A DNA stretch of 64,000 nt, from positions 10,605 through 74,604 of the forward strand of contig JADLFV010000123.1 in the NCBI GenBank assembly GCA_020849625.1, read 5' to 3'. This DNA is from Phycisphaeraceae bacterium (lineage in GTDB: Bacteria; Planctomycetota; Phycisphaerae; Phycisphaerales; Phycisphaeraceae). Position numbers and translations under genes: made by a program. A model generated the notes under the pieces. It was not told where the DNA came from. It did no database searches and saw only the letters and a program-made list of their open reading frames with translations. Shown here one piece after another: positions 1,108 to 33,702 of the stretch; within the stretch, counting starts at the first letter, position 1, and each line of letters opens with the position of its first letter.

Positions 1108-1779
1108 ATGTCCAGAACATCATCTTGCATGGCCGTGCTGGCCCTGTTGCTGTCATCGCGGGCCATGGCGGGCGTCATCGTCACCGCGGTGGCATATGAT
1201 GCCGGCGAAGGCCTCGACCGCTACATCGTCAATTTCGAGAGCACCGATGAGCGCCTCATCGGCGGCATGGATATCACCTTCACCGCGACGTCCCTGCATC
1301 AGCAGCAACCGCAGGGTATGGAAACGATCTTCCAGGACTTCAATTCACTGATGGGTCTGGTCGGCATGGATCCCAGCAAGGACACTCAGTTTCTGTTTGT
1401 AGGTGATTACGGAAACAACCTGATTTTCCACGCTCACATCAATTATGAAAACGACACCACCCTCAGGGCCATGTTTGTGATCGTCGATGGCGGCGACTAC
1501 AGCCCCTTCCACAGCCGCGAGGTGGTTCAACTGGTGGTGCCAAAGGGAACCGCTGTCTCTTACGACGGCCTGGTCAGCTACGCTAAGACCGGTGGGGCCG
1601 TCGATCCGATCAGCGGCGTCATCGTGCCTGAGTCGGCGTCGCTGCTGCTGCTGGGCGTGGGGCTGATCGCTTTGTCCGGCCGCAGGCCTCAAGACAAACA
1701 GCGGTTGTTCGAGCCCCTGAAAGAACCAGGTTTCACCGCAGAGAACGCGGAGAACACAGAGCCCAGACACTTGAAATAA
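1108..1779 (+). CDS. PEP-CTERM sorting-domain secreted protein, paralog 1 (divergent; extended C-terminal tail)
   Basis: AGGAG about 10 nt upstream of the ATG; signal peptide MSRTSSCMAVLALLLSSRAMA. Core motifs shared with paralogs 2-4 (GGMDITFTA, IFQDFN, DTQFLF, LRAMFV). PEP-CTERM-like VPESASLLLLGVGLIALSGRR followed by an unusual ~30-aa tail. Confidence 0.7.
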   Translation: MSRTSSCMAVLALLLSSRAMAGVIVTAVAYDAGEGLDRYIVNFESTDERLIGGMDITFTATSLHQQQPQGMETIFQDFNSLMGLVGMDPSKDTQFLFVGDYGNNLIFHAHINYENDTTLRAMFVIVDGGDYSPFHSREVVQLVVPKGTAVSYDGLVSYAKTGGAVDPISGVIVPESASLLLLGVGLIALSGRRPQDKQRLFEPLKEPGFTAENAENTEPRHLK

Positions 1780-1826
1780 GGCTGCTTTTGATCTTTCTCT
1801 CTGCGTCCTCGGCGTCCTCTGCGGTG
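1734..1826. repeat. Long imperfect hairpin, CGCAGAG(A/G)A-unit family
   Basis: Left arm 1734-1761 (CACCGCAGAGAACGCGGAGAACACAGAG) is the imperfect reverse complement of the right arm 1797-1826 (CTCTCTGCGTCCTCGGCGTCCTCTGCGGTG). The loop contains the stop codon of paralog 1. Same unit family as the outer arms at 47675-47849. Confidence 0.8.
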
Positions 1827-1985
1827 AGTTCTTTTTCAGTTCTTGGATTGATTCTATTTACACAGATTGAACCCGACGCAGGCCATATTGATGTTGGTTC
1901 TGTCTGGCGGCGGTTTATAATGGAGTTGTCCGGTATTCCGCGTGGATCGATTCAACTCTATGCCCCTGTTCGCAGGAGATTCACC

Positions 1986-2573
1986 ATGTCAAGGTATTCT
2001 TTGCTTGTGGCGGCTTTGATGGTTTTTGCTTTGTCCGGCAGTGCTTCGGCGGACATCCAAATCACCGGCGTGATCAACAACGCAGGCCTTACGGTGGCTG
2101 GATATGATCATTGGGACATCACGGCGACCAGTTTCATTGTCGGTGAGCTGATCGGCGGATTCGATATCACCTTCACCACCTCGTCCATGCGTCAGGTCAA
2201 TCCGGCCGGCAATCCCACCGTCTTCCAGGACGCCAATGGCTTCTTCGGCTTCGTGGGTGAAGCAGTGCCCAACGACAGCCAGTTCAATTTCCTGACCTCT
2301 GAGGTGACGATCCCGGCCGGTACGAACGGTGAAAGCAGCACCCAGCTTTGGGCGGCCTTCGTGTTCCCGGCCGGCAGTCCGCATCCCGCCCAGAGCATCA
2401 CCTTCGCTCAACTCGTCGTCCCTGTCGGCACTCCCTGGATTTACTATGACGGTTGGGTCAGCATCGCCAACTCCGGCGGCAAAACGTACCGCGTGACCAA
2501 TTGGCCCGAACCGAACTCGCTGGCGTTGCTGGGACTGGGCGGGATCATGTGCCTGCGCCGCTGTCGGGCGTGA
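1986..2573 (+). CDS. PEP-CTERM sorting-domain secreted protein, paralog 2
   Basis: AGGAG upstream of ATG 1986; signal peptide MSRYSLLVAALMVFALSGSASA. Conserved core GELIGGFDITFT, FQDANGFFGFVGE, DSQFNF, AAFVFPAGSP. C-terminal PEPNSLALLGLGGIMCLRRCRA. Confidence 0.85.
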   Translation: MSRYSLLVAALMVFALSGSASADIQITGVINNAGLTVAGYDHWDITATSFIVGELIGGFDITFTTSSMRQVNPAGNPTVFQDANGFFGFVGEAVPNDSQFNFLTSEVTIPAGTNGESSTQLWAAFVFPAGSPHPAQSITFAQLVVPVGTPWIYYDGWVSIANSGGKTYRVTNWPEPNSLALLGLGGIMCLRRCRA

Positions 2574-2641
2574 GGTTAAGGAACATAAGGATCAACAGCT
2601 TCGCTTCCATCGCAGCGTTTAACCCTTTCAGGAGGTGACTC

Positions 2642-3250
2642 ATGTCAAGAATAAACCTGATCGTCGCTCTTGTGCTGACTGTCATGCTGACCAGCGCGGC
2701 TTCGGCGAGCGTCTATCTCACTTACCAGATCAACAATATCGGTGTGACCGCGGCCGGCTATGACCGTTGGATGATTTCGGCGGTCAGCACCGTGCCGGGT
2801 GAACTAGTCGGCGGGTTCGACATCACGTTCACCGCGCTTTCCATGCGGCAGGTCAACCCTGCGGGCAATGCCTCCATCTTTCAGGATGCCAACGGTTTCT
2901 TCAGTTTCGTGGGCGAGGTGGTCGAGAACGACAGCCAGTTTCTGTTCCTGAGTTCCGAGATTACCGCCCCGGCCGGTGTGGCCCATGAAAGCAGCACCCA
3001 GTTGCGGGCCGCCTTCGTGTTCCCGGCCGGCAGTCCGCGTCCCGGCCAGAATGTCACCTTCGCGCAAGTCGTGGTGCCCACCGGCATCATCCCCGGCTTC
3101 ACGGGCCAGGTCAGCATCGCCAATGCCGGCGGTTTAATACCTGATTTTGATCCTGTGCCGGTGATTCTTCCCCCCATTCCCCCCGAGCCGACGACGCTGG
3201 CGTTGCTGGGACTGGGCGGCGTAATGTGCCTTCGCCGCTGTCGCGCGTGA
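2642..3250 (+). CDS. PEP-CTERM sorting-domain secreted protein, paralog 3
   Basis: AGGAGG upstream; signal peptide. Core nearly collinear with paralog 2 (GELVGGFDITFT, FQDANGFFSFVGE, DSQFLF, AAFVFPAGSP). C-terminal PEPTTLALLGLGGVMCLRRCRA. Confidence 0.85.
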   Translation: MSRINLIVALVLTVMLTSAASASVYLTYQINNIGVTAAGYDRWMISAVSTVPGELVGGFDITFTALSMRQVNPAGNASIFQDANGFFSFVGEVVENDSQFLFLSSEITAPAGVAHESSTQLRAAFVFPAGSPRPGQNVTFAQVVVPTGIIPGFTGQVSIANAGGLIPDFDPVPVILPPIPPEPTTLALLGLGGVMCLRRCRA

Positions 3251-3309
3251 GGTTCATGCGTGTGCGTGATCCGCGACAGCATGTGTCCTGTCTGCTAAAG
3301 GAGATCACC

Positions 3310-3909
3310 ATGTCCAGGATCACCACCATGTTGGTGGCTGTGGCGTTTGTCGTCATGGCCAGCGCGGCTTCGGCAGCCATTAACTTCAGCTATGTCTCTG
3401 ACAATGTCGGCGCGGGCTTGACCCGTTACACCTTCACCGCCAACAGCACCGTGCCCGGGCATTTGGTTGGCGGCTTTGACATGACTTTCACTGCCGACTC
3501 CATGAATCAACTGAATCCTTCCGGCCTGCCCACCATCTTCCAGGACAACAACGCTTCGATCATCTCGGCGGGGCTGGACGTGAACAGGGACAGCCAGTTT
3601 CTGTTCCTGAGTTCCGAGGTTACCGCCCCGGGCGGTGTAGCGTTTGAGAACGGCACCCAGTTGCGGGCTGCGTTTGTGTTCCCGGCCGGCAGTCCGCTCC
3701 CTGCCCAGAGCATCAACTTCGCCCAGATCGTGGTGCCGACCGGCACGGGAAACAGCATCCAGTGGAACGGTGGGGTTTCCATCGCCGGTGCCGGGCTGTT
3801 CTATAATGTTTCCGGCCAAGTTCCCGAGCCGGCGACGCTGGCGTTGCTGAGCATTGGCATGGCAGGACTATTGCGGCGCGATTCCCGGTTGGGAGCTGGT
3901 GACCACTGA
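3310..3909 (+). CDS. PEP-CTERM sorting-domain secreted protein, paralog 4
   Basis: AAGGAG upstream of ATG 3310; signal peptide MSRITTMLVAVAFVVMASAASAA. Core HLVGGFDMTFT, IFQDNN, DSQFLF, AAFVFPAGSP. C-terminal PEPATLALLSIGMAGLLRR. Confidence 0.85.
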   Translation: MSRITTMLVAVAFVVMASAASAAINFSYVSDNVGAGLTRYTFTANSTVPGHLVGGFDMTFTADSMNQLNPSGLPTIFQDNNASIISAGLDVNRDSQFLFLSSEVTAPGGVAFENGTQLRAAFVFPAGSPLPAQSINFAQIVVPTGTGNSIQWNGGVSIAGAGLFYNVSGQVPEPATLALLSIGMAGLLRRDSRLGAGDH

Positions 3910-3993: not shown

Positions 3994-5226
3994 GTGTCGA
4001 TACCCCCGTGGTTGAGAGGTCAGGCGTTGAGCGTGGCAAGTCGATGCAGGGATTGGGCGGGGCGCTGTTATGCCCGTGTGCCGGATCGGGTGGATGAGGC
4101 GTTGCTGCGCCTGTGGCATGGCTGGCGCGAGGCGGCGGGGCGGCAGGTCGGCATCGAGATGATGAGCAACGGTTCCTGTCGCGTGCTGGCGGCCGGGCGT
4201 GCCACGTCGATGGACTATTTCCTGGATCGCCTGCCGGGTGGCATGCCGCGAGTCGAATCGAGCCGCACGGTGAGTCGTGGCGCATTGGCGGCGGCGTTGC
4301 ACGATCAGATCAACGATGCGGACCTGTTGCTGGCGCGATTGCCGCGGCGCTGGTTGCAGCGGCATCCCGGTGCGTTCGACGGCCGCTGGTGGCGAGTGCC
4401 GGAGGTGGTGGGCGAGAAGATCGTGTTGCCGGAGTCGGATACCGCGAATCTGATCCCCTGGAAGAACGCCAGCAATCAGAACAATCTGGCTCGCATTCGC
4501 AAACACAATCTGAGCTGGTCGATTTCTCACGATGAGCGTGACTTCGACTATTTTTATCATCGGATGTATCTGCCGTTTCTTGCGCAGCGCTATGGCGAAC
4601 AGAGCCAGCCTCGCTCCGAGCACCGCATACGGCGGCGCTTTCGTCAGGGCGGCATCCTCTGGGTGACACAAGGCGAACGGAAGCTGGCAGCCGAGGTGTT
4701 CAGCATCCGCGGGCGGCAGTTGTCGAGCCTGTTGATGGCGCCCGAGCCGCGCTATCCGGACGCGGTGAAAATGGGCAGCCTCAGCGCCACGTATCTGTTC
4801 ATGCTCCAGTGGGCTTGGCAACAGGGTTGCCGCGAGGTGCTCGAAGGTGTCAGCCGGCCCTCGCTCAGTGACGGCGTGGTGATCCACAAAAAGCATTGGG
4901 GGGCGCAACTGGTCGATTCGCCCGATGCCCGCCACGATCTGCTGTTCGCCTGGCCTCGCTTCACGCCGCCGATCGCGCGCTTCCTGCACGAATCACCGCT
5001 GGTGGTGCGCGACGGCGATCAACTAAGCGGCCTGACCACCATGCCGTTGGATGCGTCGCCCGATCCCGGCTTGACGGAGCAGCATCTCAAGAGCATCGCT
5101 TCCGCCGGGCTGAGCCGGCTGCACGTGATCGCCGATCCGCCCTGGCGCTGCGATTCGCCGCGAGCCAAAGAGCTGCCGATCTGCTGGATATCCAGTCAGG
5201 CTGCCGTGTTGCCGATATCAGGGTAA
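3994..5226 (+). CDS. Possible FemAB/GNAT-like (BioF2-like acetyltransferase fold) protein; start uncertain
   Basis: 410-aa ORF (GTG start without a well-spaced SD; internal ATGs possible). The region DFDYFYHRMYLPFLAQRYGEQS...GSLSATYLFMLQWAWQQGC resembles FemAB-related/Acetyltransf_6 proteins found in exosortase-associated EPS loci. Assignment by eye only. Confidence 0.45.
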   Translation: MSIPPWLRGQALSVASRCRDWAGRCYARVPDRVDEALLRLWHGWREAAGRQVGIEMMSNGSCRVLAAGRATSMDYFLDRLPGGMPRVESSRTVSRGALAAALHDQINDADLLLARLPRRWLQRHPGAFDGRWWRVPEVVGEKIVLPESDTANLIPWKNASNQNNLARIRKHNLSWSISHDERDFDYFYHRMYLPFLAQRYGEQSQPRSEHRIRRRFRQGGILWVTQGERKLAAEVFSIRGRQLSSLLMAPEPRYPDAVKMGSLSATYLFMLQWAWQQGCREVLEGVSRPSLSDGVVIHKKHWGAQLVDSPDARHDLLFAWPRFTPPIARFLHESPLVVRDGDQLSGLTTMPLDASPDPGLTEQHLKSIASAGLSRLHVIADPPWRCDSPRAKELPICWISSQAAVLPISG

Positions 5227-5254
5227 GCATCCGTCACCAGTCAGCCGGCCACCC

Positions 5255-6634
5255 ATGATCAAAGCGTACGAATTCAAACCCTGGCGGCCGGATTTTCGCG
5301 ACCGGGTCTGGCGCTGGCTCAGCTTCCGGACGGCAATGCCCATGTCGTATCTGGCGGCCATCGCCCGCGGCAGCTTCGGCCGGCGTTGCACGGTGGTGGC
5401 AGTGACCGGATCGTTCGGCAAGACGACCGTGGTCCGCGCCATCCTTAAGGGTTTGCGCTGCCGCGAGAGCACCATGGTCATTGCCAGCCTCAATTGCTTT
5501 GCATATCTCTACTACCAGTTGCTAGGGCAGATGACACGCCGGCGCGAGGCGGTGCTTGAAGTCGGCATTGCCCGGCCGGGCCAGATGGGTCGATATGCCC
5601 GGGTTCTTCGCCCCGACGTGGCGGTGGTCACCGGTATCGGCACGGCGCATGTGGAGTATTTTCCCGCAGGCATCGAACAGTTGCGCAGCGAGAAGGCGGA
5701 ACTGGTGCGCGCATTATCGCCGCGCGGCACGGCTGTGCTCAATGGCGATGATCCCAATGTCGTATGGATGGCCGGCCAGACCGCGGCCCGCGTCATCACG
5801 TTTGGCATTGGCGCCGACGTCAACGTACGTGCCGTTGACGTGCGAACGAACTGGCCCGGCGGCACGCAATTCACCGTGCAGATCAATGGAGCCTCACATG
5901 AGGTGCGGTTGCGCCTGGTCGGCGCTTCCTACGTGTATGCGGCACTGTCAGCGATCGCCGTGGCACACTCCCTGGGCCGTGATGTCAGGCAGGCCATAGA
6001 TGCCCTGGGTGAATTGTCGCCCACGCCCGGACGCATGGAGGTGATCGAACTGGCTTCGGGTGCGACCATTTTGCTCGATGACACCAAGGGCACGCCGCCG
6101 ACGCTGCGGCCGGCCCTCGAGGTTTTGGAGCAGGCGCCGGCTGAGCGCCGTCTTGCCGTGCTGGGTCATTTGCCTCGCACCGCGCCGGCGCCGAAGGAGC
6201 CGGCTTACCGCGAGATGGGCCGACTGCTCGGCCGAGTGCTCGATCGCGCTTACCTGATGCATCGCATCGACTCCCAGTACGAAGCCTATCGTCAGGGGCT
6301 GATCGAGGGCGGCATGGAAGAAGCGCAGATCGTGCGTGTCGTCTCGGTCCATGATGCGGCCGATCAACTGCGTCGCGTGCTGGGCCGAGGCGACGTGTTG
6401 CTGATCAAGGCCCACATTCACGACCGCCTGTCGCGGATCGCCTTGCTGCTGCAGGACGTTCCGGTGCGCTGCCGGGCCGTGGTCTGTCCGCGTCTGAGCA
6501 TGAAACCGTGCTCGGTTTGTGTGATGCTAAGGCGGAACTTCAGCCCGACGTTCACGGATGGCGATAATAAGATGGGAACCAGTGACCCGAGCGGCCGGGC
6601 AGCCGCCAGATGCCGGAGCGATCGAAGATCATGA
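5255..6634 (+). CDS. Mur ligase family protein (MurF-like), paralog 1, with C-terminal 4-Cys motif
   Basis: P-loop VTGSFGKTT, LNGDDPNV, DDTKGTP (MurF-like DDxYNANP position). C-terminal C-x4-C-x7-C-x2-C at 6470-6520. Stop overlaps the next start (ATGA at 6631-6634). Confidence 0.8.
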   Translation: MIKAYEFKPWRPDFRDRVWRWLSFRTAMPMSYLAAIARGSFGRRCTVVAVTGSFGKTTVVRAILKGLRCRESTMVIASLNCFAYLYYQLLGQMTRRREAVLEVGIARPGQMGRYARVLRPDVAVVTGIGTAHVEYFPAGIEQLRSEKAELVRALSPRGTAVLNGDDPNVVWMAGQTAARVITFGIGADVNVRAVDVRTNWPGGTQFTVQINGASHEVRLRLVGASYVYAALSAIAVAHSLGRDVRQAIDALGELSPTPGRMEVIELASGATILLDDTKGTPPTLRPALEVLEQAPAERRLAVLGHLPRTAPAPKEPAYREMGRLLGRVLDRAYLMHRIDSQYEAYRQGLIEGGMEEAQIVRVVSVHDAADQLRRVLGRGDVLLIKAHIHDRLSRIALLLQDVPVRCRAVVCPRLSMKPCSVCVMLRRNFSPTFTDGDNKMGTSDPSGRAAARCRSDRRS

Positions 6635-7917
6635 TCAAACTGCGCGAGATCAACCCGCTGCGACCCGACTTTCCCGGCCGGATGCGATCCTATTTCAACG
6701 GTCTGCTTAAAACGCCAGCTTCATGGCTGGCTCGCGCCCATCGCTCAACCCTCGGCCGAAACGCCACGCTCATCGCCGTCACCGGCTCGTTCGGCAAGAC
6801 CACCACCACCCGCGCCATTGCCGCCATTCTCGGTCAGCACACACGACGCGAAAACTTTGAAAATTGTTTTGCCGGCCTGTACCTGCGGGCCATGTATCAC
6901 ACTTCGGCACACGACATCGCCGTGATGGAGGTTGGCATTGGTCGGCCTGGACAAATGACCCGCTATGCGCGCGTCCTGCGACCGAACATCGCGGTGGTCA
7001 CGGCCGTGGGACTCGAACACGACAAGACGATTCCCGGCGGCATCGAGACAATCGGCCGCGAAAAAGCGGAACTGGTCGTCCACCTGCCGCCTCAAGCCGT
7101 GGCGGTGCTCAACGCGGATGATCCGATCGTCGCCGCCATGGCGGAGCGCACCCGGGCCCGCGTGCTGACCTTCGGCCGCGCTCCGCAGGCGGACGTGGCG
7201 CTGCTGGATGTGCAGCATGAAGGCGGGCGCAGCATGAAGCTGCGCCTGCGCGTGGCGGGCCGGGAGCACGATCTGCACACGCAACTGGTCAGCAGCATTT
7301 CGGTGTCACCCCTGCTGGCGGCTGTGGCTGCGACGCATGCCGCGGGCATTGATGCGGCTGATGCCTGCCGTGCGATTGAAAGTCTGACGCCCACTCCGCG
7401 GCGGCTGGAGTCGGCGACGGCGCCCTGCGGCGCGACGGTGCTGGTCGATGAATACAAGGGTACGCCCGCCACCGCTCATGCCGCTTTCGATGCGGCCGGT
7501 GAACTGGCCAATCCGCGCAAGCTGGCCCTGCTGGGCAACATTCCCCAGAGCACGCCCGAACCGAAGGAGCCGATCCTCCGCGCCCTGGGGCAACACGCGG
7601 GACAGGTCTTCGATCGCGTGCTGCTGATTCACCTCAGTGATGAACACTATCAGTGGTACAGCCAGGGCCTGATGACCGGCGGCCTGGATGCGTCGTGCAT
7701 CACCCGCGTCAGTGATGTATTTGAGGCGGCTGAAGTTTTGCGCAGCCAGTTGAAGGCGGACGATCTGCTGCTGCTCAAGGGGCATTTTTTCGATCATCTG
7801 ACGCGCGTGGTGCTGATGCTGCAGGACAAGCCGGTGCGTTGCGGATTGAAGTTCTGCCTGATCCGCGGCAGCGACTGGTGCGACAAGTGCCCCCACGTGT
7901 TGCGGGACAAGCGTTGA
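6631..7917 (+). CDS. Mur ligase family protein (MurF-like), paralog 2, with C-terminal 4-Cys motif
   Basis: Start MIKLREINPLRPDF parallels MIKAYEFKPWRPDF of paralog 1. VTGSFGKTT, LNADDPIV, DEYKGTP. C-x4-C-x7-C-x2-C at 7840-7890. Confidence 0.8.
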   Translation: MIKLREINPLRPDFPGRMRSYFNGLLKTPASWLARAHRSTLGRNATLIAVTGSFGKTTTTRAIAAILGQHTRRENFENCFAGLYLRAMYHTSAHDIAVMEVGIGRPGQMTRYARVLRPNIAVVTAVGLEHDKTIPGGIETIGREKAELVVHLPPQAVAVLNADDPIVAAMAERTRARVLTFGRAPQADVALLDVQHEGGRSMKLRLRVAGREHDLHTQLVSSISVSPLLAAVAATHAAGIDAADACRAIESLTPTPRRLESATAPCGATVLVDEYKGTPATAHAAFDAAGELANPRKLALLGNIPQSTPEPKEPILRALGQHAGQVFDRVLLIHLSDEHYQWYSQGLMTGGLDASCITRVSDVFEAAEVLRSQLKADDLLLLKGHFFDHLTRVVLMLQDKPVRCGLKFCLIRGSDWCDKCPHVLRDKR

Positions 7918-7919
7918 GC

Positions 7920-9077
7920 ATGAACAAGCGGCAAAGCATTCTGATTCTGGGCGGTGACGCCGACGGCAACCTCGGCGATCGCGCCATCCTGACCGCCATG
8001 TGCGCCGCCATCAAGCGGATCGAGCCGCAGGCCGAGATCATCGCCACGTCCGAGCATCCGGACAACTTGCGGGCGATCCTGGATGCCACCGTGCTCAAGC
8101 GCGGCCTGCGCGGCCTGCCGCGTCTGTGTGCCGCGGCCCGGCGCAGTCGCATCGTGCTGATCGGGGGCGGCGGATTGTTTCAGGATGATGACAGCCTGGT
8201 CAAGATGCCCTACTGGGCAGCGCGTTGTCTGTTGATGCGTTTGTGTTGCAAACGATTGGCGGGTTGTTCCATCGGCGCGGGCCCGTTGCGTTCGTTCAGC
8301 AGCCGATTGTCGGCCATGATCGCGTTCTCCGTGATGCAGCGGGTCAGCGTGCGCGACCACATCGCTCGCCGCACGGTGCAGCCGTTGACTTCCACCACGG
8401 TGGAGGTGGTGCCTGATCCGGCTTTCATGCTCGATCCCCTGGACGACACCGCCGGCCGGCGCCTGCTCAGCGAGCAGGGCGTTCCGCTGAATGACGGCCC
8501 GTTGATCGGCGTCACCATTCGCCGCTGGTTTCCTCCCAAGCCGCGCTGGATTCCCAACCGTATTTTGCCGCGAAAAGACAATCCAATGAGTCATCGCCTG
8601 CTGGAGCTTTATGCGCAGACGCTCGACCGCGTGCTGTCACGCTGCGGCGGGCGCGTGGTGATGATGCCCACCTACAACCTGGCCCACGAAGGTGACGATC
8701 GCCTGTGCGGGCAGGTGATCAAGTTGATGGCCGGCGAGCGCGCCCACCTGGTGCGCGTGAATGATCCCGCTTTGTATCAGGCGGTGGCGCGGCAGTTGTC
8801 ATTGATGGTGGCGGGGCGCATGCACTCGGCGATCCTGGCCGCTTCGGTGGGCACGCCGGTGGTCGGCCTGGCGTACAACCCCAAGTTTCACGGCGTTTTC
8901 GAACTGTTGGGCAAATCGGACGTGGTGATGGATGTCGAGTCCTTCGTCAACAGCGCCGACGTGGACGGCTTCGCCCGCCTCATCGAGTCCACCCTGCACC
9001 GTCGCCGCCCGGCACAACCAGCCGCGGCGCAACTGGCTCAGCAGACACGGCAATGGCTTACGGAGGTGCTGTCGTGA
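7920..9077 (+). CDS. Polysaccharide pyruvyl transferase family protein (WcaK/CsaB-like)
   Basis: ILILGGDADGNLGDRAIL, LIGGGGLFQDD, GRMHSAILAASVGTPVVGLAYNPKF. Starts 2 nt after the upstream stop. Confidence 0.8.
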   Translation: MNKRQSILILGGDADGNLGDRAILTAMCAAIKRIEPQAEIIATSEHPDNLRAILDATVLKRGLRGLPRLCAAARRSRIVLIGGGGLFQDDDSLVKMPYWAARCLLMRLCCKRLAGCSIGAGPLRSFSSRLSAMIAFSVMQRVSVRDHIARRTVQPLTSTTVEVVPDPAFMLDPLDDTAGRRLLSEQGVPLNDGPLIGVTIRRWFPPKPRWIPNRILPRKDNPMSHRLLELYAQTLDRVLSRCGGRVVMMPTYNLAHEGDDRLCGQVIKLMAGERAHLVRVNDPALYQAVARQLSLMVAGRMHSAILAASVGTPVVGLAYNPKFHGVFELLGKSDVVMDVESFVNSADVDGFARLIESTLHRRRPAQPAAAQLAQQTRQWLTEVLS

Positions 9078-10306
9078 TGCTCAGCGTGGCGCATCAGCTT
9101 CGGCGAATGCGGCAGGCCACGAGGGCGAATCCCGGCGTCATCGCCACCATGCAGGCGCATCGACTGCAAAATCTGGTGCGCTGCGCCTATGACCATGTGC
9201 GCTACTACCGGCAATTGTTCGATGAGGCGGGGATCGATCCTTCCACGATCAGAAAGGTTTCGGACCTGTCCCGCATCCCGATCAGCCGCAAGAGCGATCT
9301 GCAGGCGGCTGGTGCTGAAGTGATCAGCAGTCAGGCTTTTTCACCGCAGCATTGCGTGATTGAAAAGACCAGCGGTTCGAGCGGCGCGCCCTTCGAGATT
9401 CGATTCGATCGACATTTCGTGGCGGTGCGCAACGCCATGTTCCTGCGGGCAATGGGCGCGGCGGGTTACCGGCTGGGACAGCGGATGATGCTGATCAGCG
9501 GCACGCAACCGCGCCAGCGGCGCTGGCCGACGCCGTGGCTCTACGTGCCGTTCGACGATTCCCCGGCCGCCATGCTGGAGAAGTTGAATCGCTTTCGACC
9601 GCAGGTGCTCTACGGCTGGGTGACGCCGCTGCGGCAGTTGGCTGAGCACGTGCGAGAACACAACCTTCCGGGGGCCCATCAACCGCGGGCCGTGGTGACC
9701 ACCGCTGAGCCGCTCGATGGTCCGACCCATGCGCTGCTGGGTGAAGCGCTGGGGGCGGAGGTGTTTGAGATTTTCGGCCTTACGGAAATGGGCGCGATGG
9801 CTTGGGAATGTTCCCGGCACGACGGCCTGCACCTGGCGCAGGACGTGGTGATCGCTGAGCGCGTCGAAGGCCGGCTGGTGCTGACCAATCTGTTGTTACG
9901 GGCCATGCCGCTGCTGCGCTACGACTGCGGCGACCTGGTGGAGCAGTTTCCGCCGATGGAGATGTGCGCTTGTGGTTGCACCTTCGCCAAGCTGCCGCGG
10001 GTGGAGGGTCGGCAGGTTGATTGCGTGCGTCTGGCGGATGGGCGCGTGTTGTCCCCTTATAGTCTGACACTGGCCATGGAGAAGGTTACGGCATTGCAGC
10101 GATATCAGGTGATCCAGTCGGCGCTGGGGCGTTTGGAGGTCCATTACGTGCCGCAACCGGGCAGCAGCGACGCCGAGCCGGAGATTCGGGCTGCGCTGGC
10201 CGCGTTGCTGGGTGAACAGGCGTCCATTGAGGTTATCAAGCGGTCCACGCTGGATCCCCCGCCCGGCCGCAAGTTCCGCGTGGTGGAATGCCGATGCAGG
10301 AGCTAG
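9077..10306 (+). CDS. Phenylacetate-CoA ligase / coenzyme F390 synthetase-like adenylate-forming enzyme (CapK-like)
   Basis: ATG 9077 overlaps the upstream TGA (TGATG). AMP-binding motif KTSGSSGAPF; PaaK-family-like length and layout. Confidence 0.7.
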   Translation: MLSVAHQLRRMRQATRANPGVIATMQAHRLQNLVRCAYDHVRYYRQLFDEAGIDPSTIRKVSDLSRIPISRKSDLQAAGAEVISSQAFSPQHCVIEKTSGSSGAPFEIRFDRHFVAVRNAMFLRAMGAAGYRLGQRMMLISGTQPRQRRWPTPWLYVPFDDSPAAMLEKLNRFRPQVLYGWVTPLRQLAEHVREHNLPGAHQPRAVVTTAEPLDGPTHALLGEALGAEVFEIFGLTEMGAMAWECSRHDGLHLAQDVVIAERVEGRLVLTNLLLRAMPLLRYDCGDLVEQFPPMEMCACGCTFAKLPRVEGRQVDCVRLADGRVLSPYSLTLAMEKVTALQRYQVIQSALGRLEVHYVPQPGSSDAEPEIRAALAALLGEQASIEVIKRSTLDPPPGRKFRVVECRCRS

Positions 10307-10398
10307 GAAGCCACCGAGCCACCAAGCCACCAAGGGATGGGTAAGCGGTCCCATAACGAATCCCTTGGTGGCTCGGTGGCTCGGTCACTTGGTGGCTT
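10307..10398. repeat. Long hairpin, GCCACC(G/A)A-unit family
   Basis: Left arm 10307-10337 (GAAGCCACCGAGCCACCAAGCCACCAAGGGA) is the imperfect reverse complement of the right arm 10361-10398 (TCCCTTGGTGGCTCGGTGGCTCGGTCACTTGGTGGCTT). It starts right after the stop at 10304-10306. Confidence 0.85.
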
Positions 10399-10414
10399 TG
10401 CCAAGGATCGCCGC

Positions 10415-11536
10415 ATGAACATCCTTTGCATCTGCTACGAATACCCGCCCGTCGGCGGCGGTGGGGGGCCTGCCTGCCAGGGTGTATGCCAGTCGATCGT
10501 GCAGCAGGGACATCAGGTGGACGTGGTTACCAGCGCCATGCGCGACCTGCCGCGCCATGAGCTGCGCCAGGGCGTGCAGATTCACCGCACCTCGTGCATC
10601 CGGCGACACCTCCACTATTCCAACACCTTCGAACTGTTCACCGGCCTGCTCCCCGCTTATCGCACAGCCATCGGACTTACCAGTAAAAAACAATACGACC
10701 TGATCCATTGTCACTTCGTCGTGCCTTCGGGCATCGTGGCGCGAGCGGTGGCGCGTAAGACGGGGCTGCCTTACATCATCACCGCTCATGGCTCCGACAT
10801 CCCCGGCTACAACCCGGATCGCTTCGACCTCGTGCACAAGCTCATCAGGCCGACGTGGCGATCGATCCTGCGCCAGGCCAAGGTCGTCAACACGCCGTCC
10901 TGTTATCTGCGCGACCTGATTCAGGCCAACGTGGATGTGCCGGTCCAGATCATTCCCTACGGCTTCAACCCGCCGCCCGATCCCGGCGTGGCGCGGGAAG
11001 ATCGCATCCTCGTGGTCACACGCATGTTCGAACGCAAGGGCGTGCAGCACGTGATCGAAGCGCTGCGCGGCATGCAGACCCATTGGCGACTGTGCATTGC
11101 GGGTGACGGCCCGTATCTTCCGGCACTCAAGGCGCAGGCGGAGGCGGCCGGTGTCGAGGTGGAGTTTCACGGCTACGTGCAGGGGCCGCAGCTTGTGAAG
11201 CTGTACCACTCCGCCAAGGTCTTTGCGTTTCCCTCATCGAGCGAGAACTTCCCGGTGGTACTGCTGGAGGCGATGGCGGCCGGTTGCGCGGTGGTGACCA
11301 CATCGGGCACGGGTTGCGCCGAGGTGGTGGGTGATGCCGCCATCACAGTGGAGCCGGACAGTCCGCAACAGGTGCGACAGGCTTTGCAGAGTCTGCTCAG
11401 CGATCCCGATGAGATTGCAAGGCTCAGCACCCTGGCCAGGCAGCGCATCGAGCGTTTTCACTGGGACCGCATCGGGCAGGAGTTTGAACGGCTGTACACC
11501 CGCTGCGCACTTCGGGCTGAGGAAAGGGCACCGTGA
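10415..11536 (+). CDS. Glycosyltransferase family 4
   Basis: MNILCICYEYPPVGGGGGPACQG N-terminus; C-terminal E-x7-E region FPSSSENFPVVLLEAMAAGCAVV. Confidence 0.85.
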   Translation: MNILCICYEYPPVGGGGGPACQGVCQSIVQQGHQVDVVTSAMRDLPRHELRQGVQIHRTSCIRRHLHYSNTFELFTGLLPAYRTAIGLTSKKQYDLIHCHFVVPSGIVARAVARKTGLPYIITAHGSDIPGYNPDRFDLVHKLIRPTWRSILRQAKVVNTPSCYLRDLIQANVDVPVQIIPYGFNPPPDPGVAREDRILVVTRMFERKGVQHVIEALRGMQTHWRLCIAGDGPYLPALKAQAEAAGVEVEFHGYVQGPQLVKLYHSAKVFAFPSSSENFPVVLLEAMAAGCAVVTTSGTGCAEVVGDAAITVEPDSPQQVRQALQSLLSDPDEIARLSTLARQRIERFHWDRIGQEFERLYTRCALRAEERAP

Positions 11537-12963
11537 AGCGCCGCCTGCTGCTGCACGTGTTCTTCGTTTCCGTGGCGTACTACACCAGCAATGGCCTGTA
11601 CATGGTGCGCGGGTTGGTGCTGGCGTGGCTGCTGGGCCCGGCGGCGTTCGGGGTGTGGACCGCCATGCGCCTGGTGCAGTCGTTCAGCCATTTCGCCATG
11701 CTCGGTTCGCGGCAGGGCATGGTGCAGTTGGCGCCGCAGGCCGACGGGCAAGGTGATCAGCAGCGGGCCACGCAGTTGCGCCGCGCTGCTTCACTGTTGA
11801 ATCTGTACGGCACGGTGGCGCTGATGCTGGTGGTGGCAGCCGTTGCCTTTTGGCGCGGAGCGGCGGGATACCGGCTGGCGTGGCTGCTCTTCGCGGCGGG
11901 TCTGCTGGGCACGCACCTGTTTTATTTCTATCAGGCGGACCTGCGCTCGCATCAGAAGTTCACGCTGACGGCCATCAGCGAGATATTGGTCGCGCTGATC
12001 AGCACGGGGCTGGGGCTGGCGGCCGCGTGGCGCTACGGACTGGTGGGATTTCTGCTGGTCCTGGGCGCGGGTTATCTGGTATCGCTGTGGGTGGTGTGGC
12101 GGATGGGTCCGCCGTTCGCCCGGCCGCAGTGGCGGCGCGAAACAGCCGGTCAATTGATCGCGGTGGGTTTCCCGCTGATGGCCAGCGGCGCCCTGTGCGT
12201 GGTGATGTGGAACGTGGACAAGCTGCTGCTGTGGCTGATGCGCGGGCACGAGGCGTTGGGCATTTATGCGGTGCAGGCCAGCTTCAGCAACGTGGCGCTG
12301 CTGGCGCCGGCGGCGATCTTCACCGTGCTGCATCCGCACCTGATGCGTCACCTGGGCGAGCAGCGCAGCGCTGAGGCGGTTCGGCCGTATCTGGTGCGCG
12401 GCGGGGAACTGTCGGCCGTTTGGTCGGGGCCGGTGGTGGGATTGGGCTTTCTCCTGCTGCACCTGCCGATCCGCTGGTGGCTGGCCAGGTACAGTGACGC
12501 CATCGAGCCCGGCCGCGTGCTGATGATCGCAGCCTACTTCACCATGATGGCCACCGTGCCCGCCACCGTGCTCATCTCGCTCAACGGGCAGGTGCGCCTG
12601 TGCTTGATCCGCATCGCCGCCATCGTCGTCACCGCCGTGTCCGGAGCGCTGGTGCTGAAGGCCGGCTACGGCTATGTCGCACTGGCCCTGGCGATGAGCG
12701 CGGGATTGGTGTGTGATGGCTTGCTGACATTGTGGGCCGCGGCGCATCAGGCGGCGCTGCGGCGTGGTGAAGCATGGCGCCTGGCGTGTGCGTTGCATGC
12801 GCCGCTGGCGCTGTTGGGTATCGGGCTGGCGCTGGGGTGGTGGTTGATCGGCGACAACGCGACGCACTGGCAGGCGGACCTGGCGGCCACGGCCGGCCGG
12901 TGCGCAATTCTGATGATCATTTGCGCACCGTATGCGATCTGGCGATCGCACAGGCTCAAGTGA
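11533..12963 (+). CDS. Polysaccharide/oligosaccharide flippase (Wzx/MOP family)
   Basis: GTG start overlapping the upstream stop (GTGA). 476 aa and strongly hydrophobic throughout, with many predicted TM helices, as in Wzx-like proteins. Confidence 0.7.
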   Translation: MKRRLLLHVFFVSVAYYTSNGLYMVRGLVLAWLLGPAAFGVWTAMRLVQSFSHFAMLGSRQGMVQLAPQADGQGDQQRATQLRRAASLLNLYGTVALMLVVAAVAFWRGAAGYRLAWLLFAAGLLGTHLFYFYQADLRSHQKFTLTAISEILVALISTGLGLAAAWRYGLVGFLLVLGAGYLVSLWVVWRMGPPFARPQWRRETAGQLIAVGFPLMASGALCVVMWNVDKLLLWLMRGHEALGIYAVQASFSNVALLAPAAIFTVLHPHLMRHLGEQRSAEAVRPYLVRGGELSAVWSGPVVGLGFLLLHLPIRWWLARYSDAIEPGRVLMIAAYFTMMATVPATVLISLNGQVRLCLIRIAAIVVTAVSGALVLKAGYGYVALALAMSAGLVCDGLLTLWAAAHQAALRRGEAWRLACALHAPLALLGIGLALGWWLIGDNATHWQADLAATAGRCAILMIICAPYAIWRSHRLK

Positions 12964-13101: not shown

Positions 13102-14403
13102 ATGGTCACCCAGGCGCCCGCAAGCAAACCTTCCGCCACGACTTCGACACGCAGTCAACTGCTGGACAACGCGCTGCTGCTGCTGGATCGAGCTGTGCAG
13201 CATAAGCTGGCGTCCGTGCCCGACGATCTGATGGAGAAGCTGCGCAAGCCCAAAGAGCGGATCGAGGTGACCATGTCGCCTCAGCTCAGCGACGGCCGGG
13301 TGCACACCATTCCCGCTTACATCGTGCGCCACAACACCGCGCTGGGACCGGCCAAGGGCGGCATCCGCATGACCAGCCAGGTCACGCTCGATGACGTCAA
13401 CGGCCTGTCCATGGACATGACCTGGAAGTGCGCCCTGATCGGCGTGCCCTTCGGCGGCGGTAAGAGCGGCATCGTGGCCGACCCCCGGAAGTTAAGCGTG
13501 GGCGATCGTGAAGTGCTGATCCGTGCGTTCGCCCGCTCCGCCGTGCGCCACATCGGCCCACAGGTCTATGTCCCGGCCCCCGACATGGGCACCACCGAGC
13601 GCGAGATGGGATACATCAAGGACACGCTCAGCAACGACGACGGGCAGGCCACCACCAGCGGCTGCTACGTCACCGGCAAGCCCGTCATCCTCGGTGGCGT
13701 CCCCGGCCGACGCGAAGCCACCGGGCGCGGCGTGGCCATCTGCGTGCGCGAAGCTCTGGCCCAGATGAATCAGCCCATTGAGCAGGCCACCATGGTTCTG
13801 CAGGGCTTCGGCAACGTGGGCGGCGCGGCCGCGATGATCCTGCACCAGATGGGCGCCCGCATCATCGCCGTGGCCGACATCGACGGCGCAGTGGTCAATC
13901 ACGACGGCCTGGATGTCCCAGCCCTGAACGACTATGCCAGGTGCACCGGCACAGTGCATGGTTTTACCGGCGGCAAGGAAATCGATTCCGCAGCCGTGCT
14001 GGAGCTGCCTTGCGACGTGCTGATCCCCGCCGCCGCCGCCGGCCAGATCACCGCGGACAACGCCCCGCGCATCGCCGCCCGGCTTATCGCGGAGGGAGCC
14101 AACGGCCCCACGCTGCACGAAGCGGACGAAATCCTGCGCGAACGCGGCATCACGGTGTTGCCCGACATCCTCTGCAATGCCGGCGGCGTCTATGTCTCCT
14201 ATATCGAATACACGCAGGAAACACAGCAGGAACAGTTCACCGAATCGCTGGTCAACAAGCGCCTGGAGAAGCGCATGGTGGCTCGCTACCAGCACGTGAG
14301 CCAGTATGCGGCGGAAAAGAAACTGACCCTGCGTGAAGCAGCCATGGCCATCGCCATTGAGCGCGTGGTGGAAGCGACGGTCGCCAAGGGCATGTTGCCG
14401 TAA
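13102..14403 (+). CDS. gdhA: Glutamate dehydrogenase (Glu/Leu/Phe/Val dehydrogenase family)
   Basis: GPAKGGIRM, GVPFGGGKSGI, Rossmann GFGNVGG. Confidence 0.9.
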   Translation: MVTQAPASKPSATTSTRSQLLDNALLLLDRAVQHKLASVPDDLMEKLRKPKERIEVTMSPQLSDGRVHTIPAYIVRHNTALGPAKGGIRMTSQVTLDDVNGLSMDMTWKCALIGVPFGGGKSGIVADPRKLSVGDREVLIRAFARSAVRHIGPQVYVPAPDMGTTEREMGYIKDTLSNDDGQATTSGCYVTGKPVILGGVPGRREATGRGVAICVREALAQMNQPIEQATMVLQGFGNVGGAAAMILHQMGARIIAVADIDGAVVNHDGLDVPALNDYARCTGTVHGFTGGKEIDSAAVLELPCDVLIPAAAAGQITADNAPRIAARLIAEGANGPTLHEADEILRERGITVLPDILCNAGGVYVSYIEYTQETQQEQFTESLVNKRLEKRMVARYQHVSQYAAEKKLTLREAAMAIAIERVVEATVAKGMLP

Positions 14404-14588: not shown

Positions 14589-16082
14589 ATGAAGCGGCGG
14601 ACGTTCCTGAAATTGGCGGGTTCGGGACTGGCGACCACCATGCTCGGCCCCCTGGCGTCGCGGCCGCTCCGGGCAGCACAGGCCATGCGTCCGCCCAACA
14701 TCATTCTGCTGCTGACCGACGAGCACGACCCGCGCGTGACCGGCTGCTACGGCAACAAGCTGGTCCGCACCCCGGCTCTGGATCGGCTGGCGGCCGAGGG
14801 CGTGACCTTCGACCATTGCTATTGCAACTCACCCCTGTGCGTGCCCTCGCGCCTTTCGCACACCTCCGGCAAGTACATCAGTCGCGTGAGCGCCTGGAGC
14901 AACAGTTGCCGCCTGCCCGATCCCGAAAACATCGATACGCTGGCTCACGTGCTCTCGCGCTTCGGCTATCAACCCTACCTTTGCGGCAAGAATCACTACG
15001 ACAAGCGTTATCGCTACGGCTTCATCGACCTGGAGCCCAGCTTCAACAGGAGCAACAAGACCGGCCGGGGCAATCGCCGCGAGCCCGATGATCTGGCCGA
15101 AGTGGGCGGACTGTCCAAACGATTCAATGAAAGCAATCTGGCCGTGCGCGACAACTCCTCTGTGATCAGTCACGACCAGAAAGTGACCGAGACAGCCGTG
15201 CGTTTCCTGCAGCAGCGCACAGCGGACGATGGGCCGTTTTATCTGCACGTGGGATTGCTCGCTCCGCACTTCCCGCTGGTGGCGCCGCAATCGTACTGGG
15301 ATCCGTACCGCGACCAGGTGCCCATGCCGCAGATTCCTGATGGTTTTCTTGATCGTCTGCCGCTGAACTACAAGCACCTGCGCTACGGGTTCAACGTGTC
15401 GAATGTGCCGGACGAAACGGTGAAGCTGGGGCGCGAACTGTACTACGGGCTGACGCAGTGGGTCGATGACCAGATCGGCACGCTCCTGGCGGCACTGGTC
15501 CAGACGGAATTTGCTGAGAACACTGTCATCATCTACACGGCCGATCACGGCGAAAACGCCGGCGAGCACGGCCTGTGGTGGAAGAACAGCATGTACGAGC
15601 AATCAGCGGGGATCCCGTTGATCATGCACTGGCCGCAGCGCTGGGCCGGTGGTCAGCGGCGCAGCGGCGTCTGCTCCATGCTCGACGTGGTGCGCACGAT
15701 CATCGACCTGGCCGGCGGGCAGGCGCCCGATGACTGGGATGGCTCAACGCTGTTGCCGTTGCTGGACGATGCGCAGAGCCAGTGGGCGGATTTCGCCGTC
15801 AGCCAGTATTACGCCCACAACATCGCCTCCGGCTACGCCATGCTGGTCCAGGGCAACTGGAAATACGTCTATCACAGTCCGCCCGACCAGCACTACAAGC
15901 CGGAGATGGAGTTGTACGACCTGGCGGCCGACCCGATGGAGTTTGACAACCTGTCGTCGCAGCCGCAGCAGGCGCAGCGCCTGGCGCATATGCACGAGTT
16001 TCTGGTCAGGCAGATCGGCGAGCACCCGGACGAAACCGAAGCCCGCTGCCGCGCGCAGATCATCAAGGGTTACGATGCCTGA
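14589..16082 (+). CDS. Sulfatase (Tat signal)
   Basis: Twin-arginine signal MKRRTFLKLAGSGLA. Sulfatase signature CVPSRLS, PNIILLLTDEHD, ADHGE. Confidence 0.9.
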   Translation: MKRRTFLKLAGSGLATTMLGPLASRPLRAAQAMRPPNIILLLTDEHDPRVTGCYGNKLVRTPALDRLAAEGVTFDHCYCNSPLCVPSRLSHTSGKYISRVSAWSNSCRLPDPENIDTLAHVLSRFGYQPYLCGKNHYDKRYRYGFIDLEPSFNRSNKTGRGNRREPDDLAEVGGLSKRFNESNLAVRDNSSVISHDQKVTETAVRFLQQRTADDGPFYLHVGLLAPHFPLVAPQSYWDPYRDQVPMPQIPDGFLDRLPLNYKHLRYGFNVSNVPDETVKLGRELYYGLTQWVDDQIGTLLAALVQTEFAENTVIIYTADHGENAGEHGLWWKNSMYEQSAGIPLIMHWPQRWAGGQRRSGVCSMLDVVRTIIDLAGGQAPDDWDGSTLLPLLDDAQSQWADFAVSQYYAHNIASGYAMLVQGNWKYVYHSPPDQHYKPEMELYDLAADPMEFDNLSSQPQQAQRLAHMHEFLVRQIGEHPDETEARCRAQIIKGYDA

Positions 16083-16174
16083 CGACACGGATGGCGACAT
16101 GGCTCGGGATCGCAGGGCAAGTGGATGTGATGCGCTGCAGTGCGTTGGCGCGATTTGGATTGTCGTATTGAGAA

Positions 16175-16261
16175 TGCCGGTGGAGGGACTTGAACCCACA
16201 CGTCCTTTAAGGGGACAACGGATTTTGAATCCGTCGCGTCTGCCAATTCCGCCACACCGGC
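16175..16261 (-). tRNA. tRNA-Leu(CAA)
   Basis: Minus-strand sequence GCCGGTGTGGCGGAATTGGCAGACGCGACGGATTCAAAATCCGT...GGGTTCAAGTCCCTCCACCGGCA. 7-bp acceptor stem, anticodon loop TTCAAAA, long variable arm; one U-U mismatch in the T stem; no encoded CCA. Confidence 0.85.
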
Positions 16262-16705
16262 TCAGGTGCGGGCAGCAATTGTAACGTACCCGCGTCCGCG
16301 CGTCGGCGGCTGCCGCAAAAATGCATTAACGGGGCCTGGTTATTCTATCCCGTTGTAATCACGCCAGTTAAGATCAAAACTCGTTTTGCCGGGTGAGTCT
16401 ATTTGATCAAATTGTCCGGGCCAAACTTAAATCGTAATTATATTTCGGTATATTTATGGGGCCGGGGTTATGCGCAGGTCATGGAGCGTCCTGAACATGG
16501 CTGCTCTGGCGCGATTGATTTGGCTGCGGTGGGCTTGAAGTTCGCCCTGTTGCATCGGATGAACCAATGGTGAATCAACGAATGATCGATTGTGATCGCC
16601 ATGAAGTTGAGGGCGACAGGCCGCACTTGCCGGCCGGCAATGAGAGAGGCAGCATCGTCTATGACGCACGACATGACCTGATCCTAGATAGCGAGGAATG
16701 ACGTT

Positions 16706-18793: not shown

Positions 18794-18794
18794 C

Positions 18795-19829: not shown

Positions 19830-19842
19830 GAGACGCAGTGAT

Positions 19843-20790: not shown

Positions 20791-20873
20791 TCGCGGATTC
20801 GTCACGTTGACTGCGTTACCATCGCCCTGCCGCGGCCATCGCGGTGGGGCGTTTTCACACAAGGGGATCGCAC

Positions 20874-30220: not shown

Positions 30221-30225
30221 GAGTG

Positions 30226-31332: not shown

Positions 31333-31375
31333 GCAGGGTGATGCGGCCCGGCCAAGATGGCCGGGCTATATCGAA

Positions 31376-32560: not shown

Positions 32561-32626
32561 GATGGGCCAATCGTAACACGGCCGGCGCTGGCGGGAAAGC
32601 AGGCCATGGGAAACGGGTCGCCAACA

Positions 32627-33655: not shown

Positions 33656-33702
33656 GCGATCTCCGGTTTGCTGCGTTATATCTTGTCGCCGTATGGAGTA
33701 TT

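Follow-up and report, generated by a model that had tools for sequence, protein, structure and literature searches.

The 64,000 bp stretch of DNA analysed here (called the window below) comes from a metagenome-assembled genome (MAG) annotated as Phycisphaeraceae bacterium, and seven of its plus-strand genes, numbered g1 to g7 and spanning 3994-12963 in the open reading frame (ORF) listing and by direct reading of the sequence, make up a real and conserved cassette of uncultured Phycisphaerae that is not a complete polysaccharide locus. Its invariant core consists of the genes for a short Mur-like ligase, a CsaB-like pyruvyl transferase, a PaaK/CapK-like enzyme, a family 4 glycosyltransferase (GT4) and a Wzx flippase. 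On balance we think that the locus probably tailors and exports a lipid-linked sugar that is primed elsewhere, to which it would add one sugar, a pyruvate ketal and at least one amide-linked amino acid before flipping the product. The kinds of components, and the decoration of lipid-linked glycans with amino acids, are already known; the conserved combination and the family of short Mur ligases with a four-cysteine (Cys4) tail are uncharacterised, and we found no description in the literature of Mur-type ligases in exopolysaccharide (EPS), capsule or polysaccharide loci. Few bacterial glycans carry amino-acid substituents, and most of the enzymes responsible for them are uncharted; the cassette ties a widespread, unstudied family of short Mur-type ligases to glycan tailoring, and its five-gene core is defined and small enough for expression and assay.

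Conservation of a five-gene core

Related loci were found through exact-protein look-ups, and the five-gene core is present on seven contigs, six of them independent (the window, L001, L003, L007, L091 and the L092/L093 pair; Table 2). The pyruvyl transferase and PaaK/CapK-like genes are present in every cassette copy, and the flippase gene in every full-length copy. No priming transferase, Wzy, Wza or Wzc gene was found beside the core in any cassette copy, Wzx being the only part of a complete Wzx/Wzy locus that every copy has, and among the roughly 50 window proteins (64 kb) scanned with Pfam there was likewise no Wza, Wzc or priming transferase. The earlier, first-pass annotation of this DNA, made from the sequence by a model, had already seen none of these four in the locus, and the window's only Wzy_C-type protein lies about 36 kb away. 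We rejected a complete EPS locus as an explanation, given that primer, polymerase and export genes are missing beside every core copy.

The Fem-like gene accompanies the Mur-like gene on five contigs and is missing from two core copies (L091 and L092/L093); it is an optional accessory, and a small GNAT gene is also a frequent one. Thus, of the seven-gene locus originally described, the five-gene core is conserved, the Fem-like gene is dispensable to the arrangement and g2 is found in the window only.

Table 1. Features of the cassette and its immediate surroundings in the window.
Feature	Position	Strand	Basis or remark
PEP-CTERM array, four small paralogs (1108-1779, 1980-2573, 2642-3250, 3307-3909)	1108-3909	+	PF07589, TIGR02595, C-terminal PEP motif by regular expression; context, not part of the cassette
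g1, Fem/MprF-type tandem-GNAT transferase (probable)	3994-5226	+	Profile search of relatives, AlphaFold2 (AF2), Foldseek
g2, extra divergent short Mur-like ligase paralog	5255-6634	+	Mur_ligase_M, Mur_ligase_C
g3, conserved short MurF-like ATP-dependent ligase	6631 (or 6610)-7917	+	Pfam, NCBIfam
g4, polysaccharide pyruvyl transferase, CsaB-like	7920-9077	+	PF04230, TIGR03609
g5, PaaK/CapK-like adenylate-forming enzyme	9077-10306	+	NCBIfam matches, PaaK 2y27
Long imperfect hairpin in the g5-g6 spacer	10313-10385	+	RNA fold
g6, GT4 glycosyltransferase, the cassette's only glycosyltransferase	10415 (or 10337)-11536	+	Glycos_transf_1, Glyco_transf_4
g7, Wzx-type (PST/MOP) flippase	11533-12963	+	PF01943, PF13440

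Table 2. Gene content of related loci.
Locus	Description	Genes
L001	Uncultured Phycisphaeraceae MAG, 78-87% amino acid identity	5-6 PEP-CTERM genes, g1, one Mur-like gene, pyruvyl transferase, PaaK-like, GT4, Wzx, GDH
L003, L007	38-65% identity	Small GNAT, g1-like, opposite-strand 234-aa gene, Mur-like, pyruvyl transferase, PaaK-like, GT4, Wzx; DUF6817 in L007
L090	Short contig	g1-like, opposite-strand gene as in L003/L007, Mur-like
L091	57 kb contig	GNAT, Mur-like, pyruvyl transferase, PaaK-like, GT4, Wzx; no Fem-like gene within 10 kb upstream
L092/L093	Two near-identical contigs	Five core genes in two divergent operons, GNAT, second AMP-binding enzyme; no Fem-like gene

The opposite-strand gene that separates the Fem-like from the Mur-like gene (L003 4986-5693, L007 11157-11861 and L090 1348-2097, all on the minus strand) encodes a protein of 234-249 amino acids with the motif GHFWYPPGGYMGWHTN, no Pfam match and no homolog in the window. 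A GDH gene (13102-14403) was considered as a member of the cassette and rejected; among the relatives it follows the cassette only in L001.

Gene arrangement and coding status

Four of the gene junctions, read from the sequence, are tight: an ATGA overlap at 6631-6634 (g2/g3), a TGA at 7915-7917 followed by GC and the ATG at 7920, which leaves a 2-nt gap at 7918-7919 (g3/g4), a TGATG at 9075-9079 (g4/g5) and a GTGA at 11533-11536 (g6/g7). These are exactly the junctions given in the first-pass annotation for its seven same-strand genes, but its statement that all seven are coupled does not stand, as g1 and g2 are separated by a 28-nt spacer and g5 and g6 by one of 108 nt (with the g6 start at 10415), and neither pair is coupled. 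The start at 10415 is preferred over 10337 because orthologs of g6 are 370-379 amino acids long. Stop/start overlaps of this type are ordinary in operons and are not in themselves beyond chance. All seven ORFs have coding-type base composition (a G+C fraction of 0.75-0.86 at third and about 0.47-0.50 at second codon positions), six have orthologs in L001 with 78-87% amino acid identity, and the ratio of nonsynonymous to synonymous divergence (dN/dS) between the window and L001 is 0.16-0.25 for every gene compared (0.25 for g1), which indicates purifying selection.

The g5-g6 spacer contains a strong hairpin of 73 nt composed of CCACCGAG/CCACCAAG octamers, and the RNA fold of 10300-10420 has an energy of -65.3 kcal/mol (z = -7.3). 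The octamer repeat occurs at this single site in the window and is missing from L001, whose g5-g6 spacer is 10 nt. The hairpin may be a small inserted repeat element, or it may be an intra-operon RNA stabiliser or attenuator. A promoter/terminator scan of the locus gave signal no better than shuffled sequences.

The short Mur-like ligases

The g2 and g3 proteins match Mur_ligase_M (98.2 and 91.7 bits, respectively; Pfam cut-off 24) and Mur_ligase_C (38.6 and 30.6 bits; cut-off 28.4), and so belong to the Mur ligase superfamily, but are they simply MurF? Their best NCBIfam match is indeed MurF (TIGR01143), over the middle and C-terminal domains. They align with that model from position 64-65 onward, with 160.2 and 153.9 bits against a cut-off of 288.6, and in the PDB search g3 aligns with Pseudomonas aeruginosa MurF (4cvk) from residue 102 on. 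The UDP-binding, N-terminal substrate domain of roughly 100 residues is missing, and they are not canonical MurF proteins. They retain the P-loop (GSFGKTT, invariant in the alignment of Mur-like proteins), the EK at the carbamyl-lysine position, LNxDD and the C-domain motif; the DDSYNANP of MurF is replaced by (D/E)(D/E)xKGTP, and a C-terminal Cys4 extension is present. This extension reads C-x4-C-x7-C-x2-C in g3 and C-x4-C-x5-7-C-x2-C in 136 of the 137 family sequences, the sole exception being a truncated one.

MurT is the one characterised Mur ligase that lacks a full N-domain; it acts on lipid II, and because of this substrate, its authors argue, the UDP-binding N-domain is unnecessary and would clash with the membrane (PMC6113224). 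Like MurT, the g2 and g3 proteins are truncated at the N-terminal domain, keep the ATP site intact and contain a Cys4 motif. They differ from it in that they carry a normal Mur_ligase_C domain and are closest to MurF, and in that their Cys4 motif is at the extreme C-terminus whereas the zinc ribbon of MurT is in its middle domain (PMC6113224). In addition, the cassette has a glycan instead of a peptidoglycan context and no GatD partner, a GatD-like gene being absent from every cassette copy. No MurT model was found among the 24 NCBIfam matches, and the two proteins are not MurT enzymes.

The g3 ligase is the conserved one of the two. Its orthologs in L001, L007 and L003 are 84, 52 and 50% identical, respectively, and its clade comprises about 19 clusters at 50-57% identity, after which there is a gap to 39% or below. 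In contrast, g2 is only 42-46% identical to g3 and to all module orthologs, is sister to the whole module clade in a neighbour-joining tree (built without bootstraps) and has no counterpart in L001, where only 11 nt separate g1 from the single Mur-like gene. Even so, none of the invariant positions of the module alignment, P-loop and Cys4 included, has changed in g2, and its sequence suggests that it is probably a functional, lineage-specific, divergent extra ligase. The two Mur ligases reported originally are therefore one conserved enzyme and one paralog that is found in this genome only. After its Cys4 motif g2 has a 35-residue, basic, Arg/Ser-rich tail (6532-6634) without parallel among the aligned family members, and the last codons of this tail overlap the alternative g3 start at 6610.

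The wider family of short Mur-like ligases is large, with at least 310 clusters (90% identity) at E <= 1e-10 in Planctomycetota, Burkholderiales/Casimicrobiaceae, Thermoanaerobaculia, Verrucomicrobiaceae and Rhodobacterales. No close cassette ortholog (at most 39% identity) turned up when metagenomes were scanned with the alignment of Mur-like proteins. Family members have AsnB-like, PaaK/CapK-like, GNAT, methyltransferase, ATPgrasp_ST and GT-C genes as neighbours, and there are also tandem copies. In Proteobacteria and other phyla a Cys4 Mur-like ligase is paired, with a 4-nt overlap, with an AsnB-type glutamine amidotransferase (L002 8232-11275 and L004/L005 6094-9299; also in L009, L010, L013, L024 and L029), and in L002 this pair stands alone amid housekeeping genes. 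The two-gene unit is reminiscent of MurT/GatD but has a different amidotransferase. Tandem short Mur-like copies on metagenome contigs (three in L016 1299-5572 and two in L023 61-2734) suggest a stepwise addition of several residues in some lineages, parallel to g2 plus g3.

In one cultured organism, Gemmobacter aquarius HYN0069, a Cys4-tailed member (31% identity to g3) lies on plasmid NZ_CP028919.1 directly downstream of a PF04230-family protein, in a cluster that also holds GT4, GT25 and formyltransferase genes. That PF04230-family protein has no pairwise similarity to g4 and covers only the last 50 PF04230 positions; with the Pfam match there being partial, the adjacency lends weak support to an independent recurrence of the pyruvyl-transferase/Mur-like pairing.

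The pyruvyl transferase, adenylate-forming enzyme, glycosyltransferase and flippase

The g4 protein is a member of the PF04230 family (83.7 bits; cut-off 25.3), and its best specific match is to CsaB (TIGR03609, 138.8 bits, E 2e-40, nearly the full model), below the equivalog cut-off of 213.1 bits. CsaB acts on a lipid-linked disaccharide that is built by one glycosyltransferase on a TagO-primed carrier (PMC6030368). The cassette resembles the CsaB/TagA pathway, which pyruvylates the repeats of secondary cell wall polymers, in pairing a CsaB-like pyruvyl transferase with a single glycosyltransferase, and it would also share with it the dependence on phosphoenolpyruvate (PEP), the lipid-linked stage and a carrier primed by a separately encoded enzyme. 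It differs in the score of g4, in that g6 is a GT4 and TagA a GT26 enzyme, and in that the CsaB pathway has no amino-acid ligases.

The g5 protein matches the NCBIfam models DVU_1553, PaaK, FlxY and F390, all under their equivalog cut-offs, and it is similar over its full length to PaaK (2y27, E 1.8e-21, residues 20-404), which places it with the PaaK-type ANL enzymes; its L092 ortholog has a weak CapK_C match. The PaaK/CapK-like protein VpsH is genetically required for the addition of glycine to a uronic-acid residue of a polyprenyl-diphosphate (BPP)-linked disaccharide in the synthesis of Vibrio cholerae polysaccharide (VPS) (PMC13463779). Both are PaaK/CapK-like proteins of Wzx-dependent glycan loci, a likeness that is one of family and not of direct sequence comparison. 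The VPS locus differs from the cassette in having a primer, four glycosyltransferases and polymerase/export genes, and no Mur-like ligase. The NCBIfam matches of g6 are generic (TuaC, BshA, EpsE) and far under cut-off, and g6 also has weak matches to the glycolipid synthases GlcN-PG synthase, MGlcDAG synthase and IagA/BgsA.

The Fem-like transferase

The g1 gene probably starts at 4027 or 4033 (the NCBI call has 397 amino acids). Direct searches of Pfam, NCBIfam (E <= 0.01) and PDB with the protein gave no match at all and a word-based search gave only three relatives, whereas an exhaustive profile search gave 2179 representative relatives. Among the 68 of these that were aligned, 27 match PF13480 (Acetyltransf_6), six match FemAB and 13 match TIGR03019 (best E 3e-8), all of them weakly; TIGR03019 is named "FemAB family XrtA/PEP-CTERM system-associated protein". 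An AF2 model built on the 68-sequence alignment has a pLDDT of 95 and a pTM of 0.91, and replaced a model from three sequences that had a pLDDT of 48. A Foldseek search with it gave 90 PDB matches at E <= 1e-3, of which the top ones are L-PGS/A-PGS (MprF), Sba18/Sbb17, FemX and FemA (E 3e-9 to 5e-5), and the best are all aminoacyl-tRNA-dependent tandem-GNAT transferases. The family-invariant K286-x-x-W289-G290 aligns with the FKKVWG motif of Staphylococcus aureus FmhB, so that g1 shares with FemX, FemAB and MprF both the tandem-GNAT fold and a K-x-x-(W/F)-G motif; it differs from them, and from TIGR03019, in that it reaches no family threshold.

From the model, g1 is probably a Fem/MprF-type transferase that depends on aminoacyl-tRNA. 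Because the profile relatives and the model place it there, the original description of this ORF as FemAB/GNAT-like, with an acyltransferase fold, was right at the level of fold. The profile search for TIGR03019 that the annotation had suggested came out less clearly, with g1 itself under the threshold and only the weak matches among its relatives. The protein is outside all named families, in a separate unnamed family of about 2000 representatives. No g1 homolog was found in a plasmid collection, and in a genome-contig scan with a g1 alignment the contig of L001 was the sole match. With the profile searches and this structure model, all of the protein-family calls in the first-pass annotation hold, as does its observation that several carboxylate-activating or aminoacyl-transferring enzymes of amide-forming types accompany a single glycosyltransferase.

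A possible pathway

What could this set of enzymes make? From the gene content, conservation, folds and intact motifs described above we infer which substrates are used, in what order the steps occur and which carboxylate is activated, as follows. A polyprenyl-diphosphate-sugar, primed by an enzyme encoded elsewhere, would gain one sugar through the GT4. Still at the lipid-linked stage, the pyruvyl transferase would then, like CsaB, use PEP to form a pyruvate ketal, and the Mur-like ligase would activate a carboxylate as an acyl-phosphate (ATP to ADP and Pi) and condense it with an amino acid or amine, working without a UDP-binding N-domain as MurT does on lipid II. The CapK-like enzyme would form a second amide through an acyl-adenylate, comparable to the VpsH-dependent addition of glycine in Vibrio VPS, and the Fem-like enzyme, where present, would use aminoacyl-tRNA to aminoacylate a free amine. 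One further residue would come from g2 in this genome, and Wzx would flip the finished unit. The idea of a pyruvylated, amino-acid-decorated, lipid-linked glycan, put forward in the first-pass annotation, thus remains the best reading, now with the VpsH, CsaB and MurT precedents; the role that it gave to PEP-CTERM proteins as partners is not supported (below).

With no enzyme for uronic acid formation encoded in it, the cassette itself makes a single carboxylate, that of the pyruvate. This is the basis of a more specific version of the pathway, in which the product would be a glycopeptide unit resembling murein, made along a parallel route. Here the pyruvate ketal, derived from PEP, would stand in for the PEP-derived lactyl group of MurNAc, its carboxylate would be extended with amino acids by the N-domain-less Mur-type and the CapK-type ligases on the lipid-linked sugar, the Fem-type transferase would add a branch residue from aminoacyl-tRNA, and the MOP-family flippase would export the unit. 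We regard this version as tentative and rather improbable. We found nothing relevant on amidated pyruvate ketals in the literature, and a 2019 review of pyruvylated glycoconjugates does not mention them. Were it true, surface glycans bearing peptides on an amide-substituted pyruvate ketal would form a new class, and the large Cys4 short-Mur-ligase family would have its first function; activation of the ketal carboxylate would be new glycan chemistry that uses the logic of peptidoglycan precursors.

Several points weigh against the tailoring pathway as drawn. Beyond the cassette clade the Mur-like family occurs in the absence of a pyruvyl transferase, and a carboxylate other than that of pyruvate may therefore be the one activated, which makes the murein-like version in particular uncertain. 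The Foldseek TM-scores of g1 are low (0.33-0.49) despite a probability of 1.0, and PF13480-type tandem-GNAT proteins may use acyl-CoA instead of aminoacyl-tRNA. All equivalog-level hidden Markov model cut-offs are missed by the cassette proteins, which are known from sequences and models, and every cassette copy is metagenome-derived, several being on short contigs. Finally, the acceptor lipid and the primer would have to be supplied from outside the cassette.

Alternative explanations

The cassette adjoins a PEP-CTERM array, and a sorting link to it is tempting; in the first-pass annotation the glycan product was proposed as a possible acceptor or partner of the adjacent PEP-CTERM proteins, which an exosortase would attach to it. 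The XrtA/PEP-CTERM EPS loci (Haft et al. 2006, PMC1569441) are similar in that PEP-CTERM genes lie beside glycan genes with Fem-like, AMP-forming and GT4 companions, and other observations point the same way: the four paralogs directly upstream of the cassette in the window and 5-6 orthologous genes in L001, the weak TIGR03019 matches of 13 of the 68 g1 relatives, a g1 homolog in L089 that adjoins a GT4 gene and an 86-aa protein with a weak PEP-CTERM match, and, in L007, one PEP-CTERM gene that lies on the opposite strand at a distance of 5 kb upstream. However, the array adjoins the cassette in the window and L001 only, and since these two are close (about 83% amino acid identity) the adjacency represents one shallow lineage and may be a single inherited arrangement. 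No PEP-CTERM gene was found beside the cassette in L003 (motif scan), and none was flagged for L091 or L092/L093, so that for the deeper relatives the locus is largely not conserved next to such genes. Of the marks of an XrtA/PEP-CTERM EPS locus, an exosortase is absent from the roughly 50 proteins of the 64 kb window scanned with Pfam, and the PEP-CTERM linkage is not conserved across the cassette copies; an EpsI-type primer and chain-length/export genes are lacking from the cassette as well. Mur-type ligases are not mentioned as components by Haft et al. 2006 (PMC1569441), where the sole "Mur" is in a reference title on MurNAc. In addition, g1 misses TIGR03019 and the Fem-like gene is missing from two cassette copies. 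The tempting sorting link is not conserved, and we think this explanation unlikely. Slightly less probable still is that the cassette makes a CsaB-type product to which the amide-forming enzymes add unrelated decorations. The near-complete CsaB match of g4 would fit, as would a one-glycosyltransferase cassette without its own primer, which parallels the single-glycosyltransferase, TagO-primed carrier of CsaB (PMC6030368), but g4 falls well short of the cut-off (139 against 213 bits), the window proteins scanned include no SLH-domain protein, and the invariant partnership of the Mur-like and CapK-like ligases would be left unexplained.

The remaining explanations change the acceptor or the purpose. 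If the GT4 glycosylated diacylglycerol or phosphatidylglycerol, the head group could be pyruvylated and aminoacylated, by analogy with MprF, and the resulting glycolipid flipped by the Wzx-like protein. No priming phosphoglycosyl transferase would be needed, g1 comes out at the top of the fold search with the aminoacyl-phosphatidylglycerol synthase domains of MprF (4v36, 4v34, 6lv0) and g6 resembles glycolipid synthases weakly. We nonetheless consider this quite improbable. The GT4 matches are generic and far under cut-off, g1 matches FemX and Sba18 just as well as MprF, and not every cassette copy has a Fem-like gene. Moreover, polyprenyl-linked oligosaccharides are known substrates of PF01943 flippases, and polyprenyl-diphosphate substrates are known for CsaB-type enzymes. 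It seems very improbable that the cassette makes a soluble product, such as a bacillithiol- or mycothiol-like glycoside or a natural product, with the GT4, the ligases and the GNAT as synthetic enzymes and the MOP transporter as exporter. In its favour, a GT4, an ATP-dependent ligase and a tandem GNAT are also combined in mycothiol-type pathways, the better matches of the GT4 include BshA and MshA, and small GNATs lie alongside four cassette copies. On the other hand, the scores are far under the BshA and MshA cut-offs, no deacetylase is present, the pyruvyl transferase and PST-family flippase point to lipid-linked glycans, and the neighbours of the wider Mur-like family are glycan genes. Could the Mur-like and Fem-like genes, finally, be housekeeping peptidoglycan genes (MurF/MurE and a Fem branch transferase), a doubt raised in the first-pass annotation itself? 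Planctomycetes have peptidoglycan, and MurF is the best named match of the Mur-like proteins. Their missing N-terminal domain, low scores (154-160 against 288.6 bits) and glycan-gene context effectively refute this identity, and next to nothing is left of its probability: identity to canonical MurE-MurF tandem loci is only 25-30%, the family is an extra gene in Proteobacteria beside AsnB-like or EPS genes, and the cassette genes sit with a pyruvyl transferase, GT4 and Wzx in all copies with no dcw genes nearby.

Other features of the window

The motif of the first PEP-CTERM paralog (1108-1779) is a variant one (VPES...GRR), and an acidic extension of 30 residues comes after its basic cluster; the other three paralogs terminate directly after the motif. 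The window's only polymerase- or ligase-like gene (48559-50799, minus strand) encodes a 746-aa Wzy_C (O-antigen ligase/polymerase-type) protein with C-terminal TPR repeats. A group of genes like those for a lipopolysaccharide core lies at 29057-34674 on the minus strand (GT4, GT9 heptosyltransferase-like, HAD phosphatase-like, an unassigned 342-aa ORF and a GHMP kinase).

Window genes carry the locus tags IT445_17755/60/65, and their contig is 75,194 bp long. Directly downstream of the cassette, at 14589-23911, is a run of glycan-degradation genes: a sulfatase, a 695-aa FG-GAP/VCBS-like protein, a BNR sialidase-like protein, a DapA-type (N-acetylneuraminate lyase-like) protein, a second sulfatase and a SASA sialate O-acetylesterase. 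The name at 22376-23911 comes from a Pfam scan and the others were read by eye from the sequences. Downstream of the cassette in L001 there are BNR_2 and sulfatase genes too.

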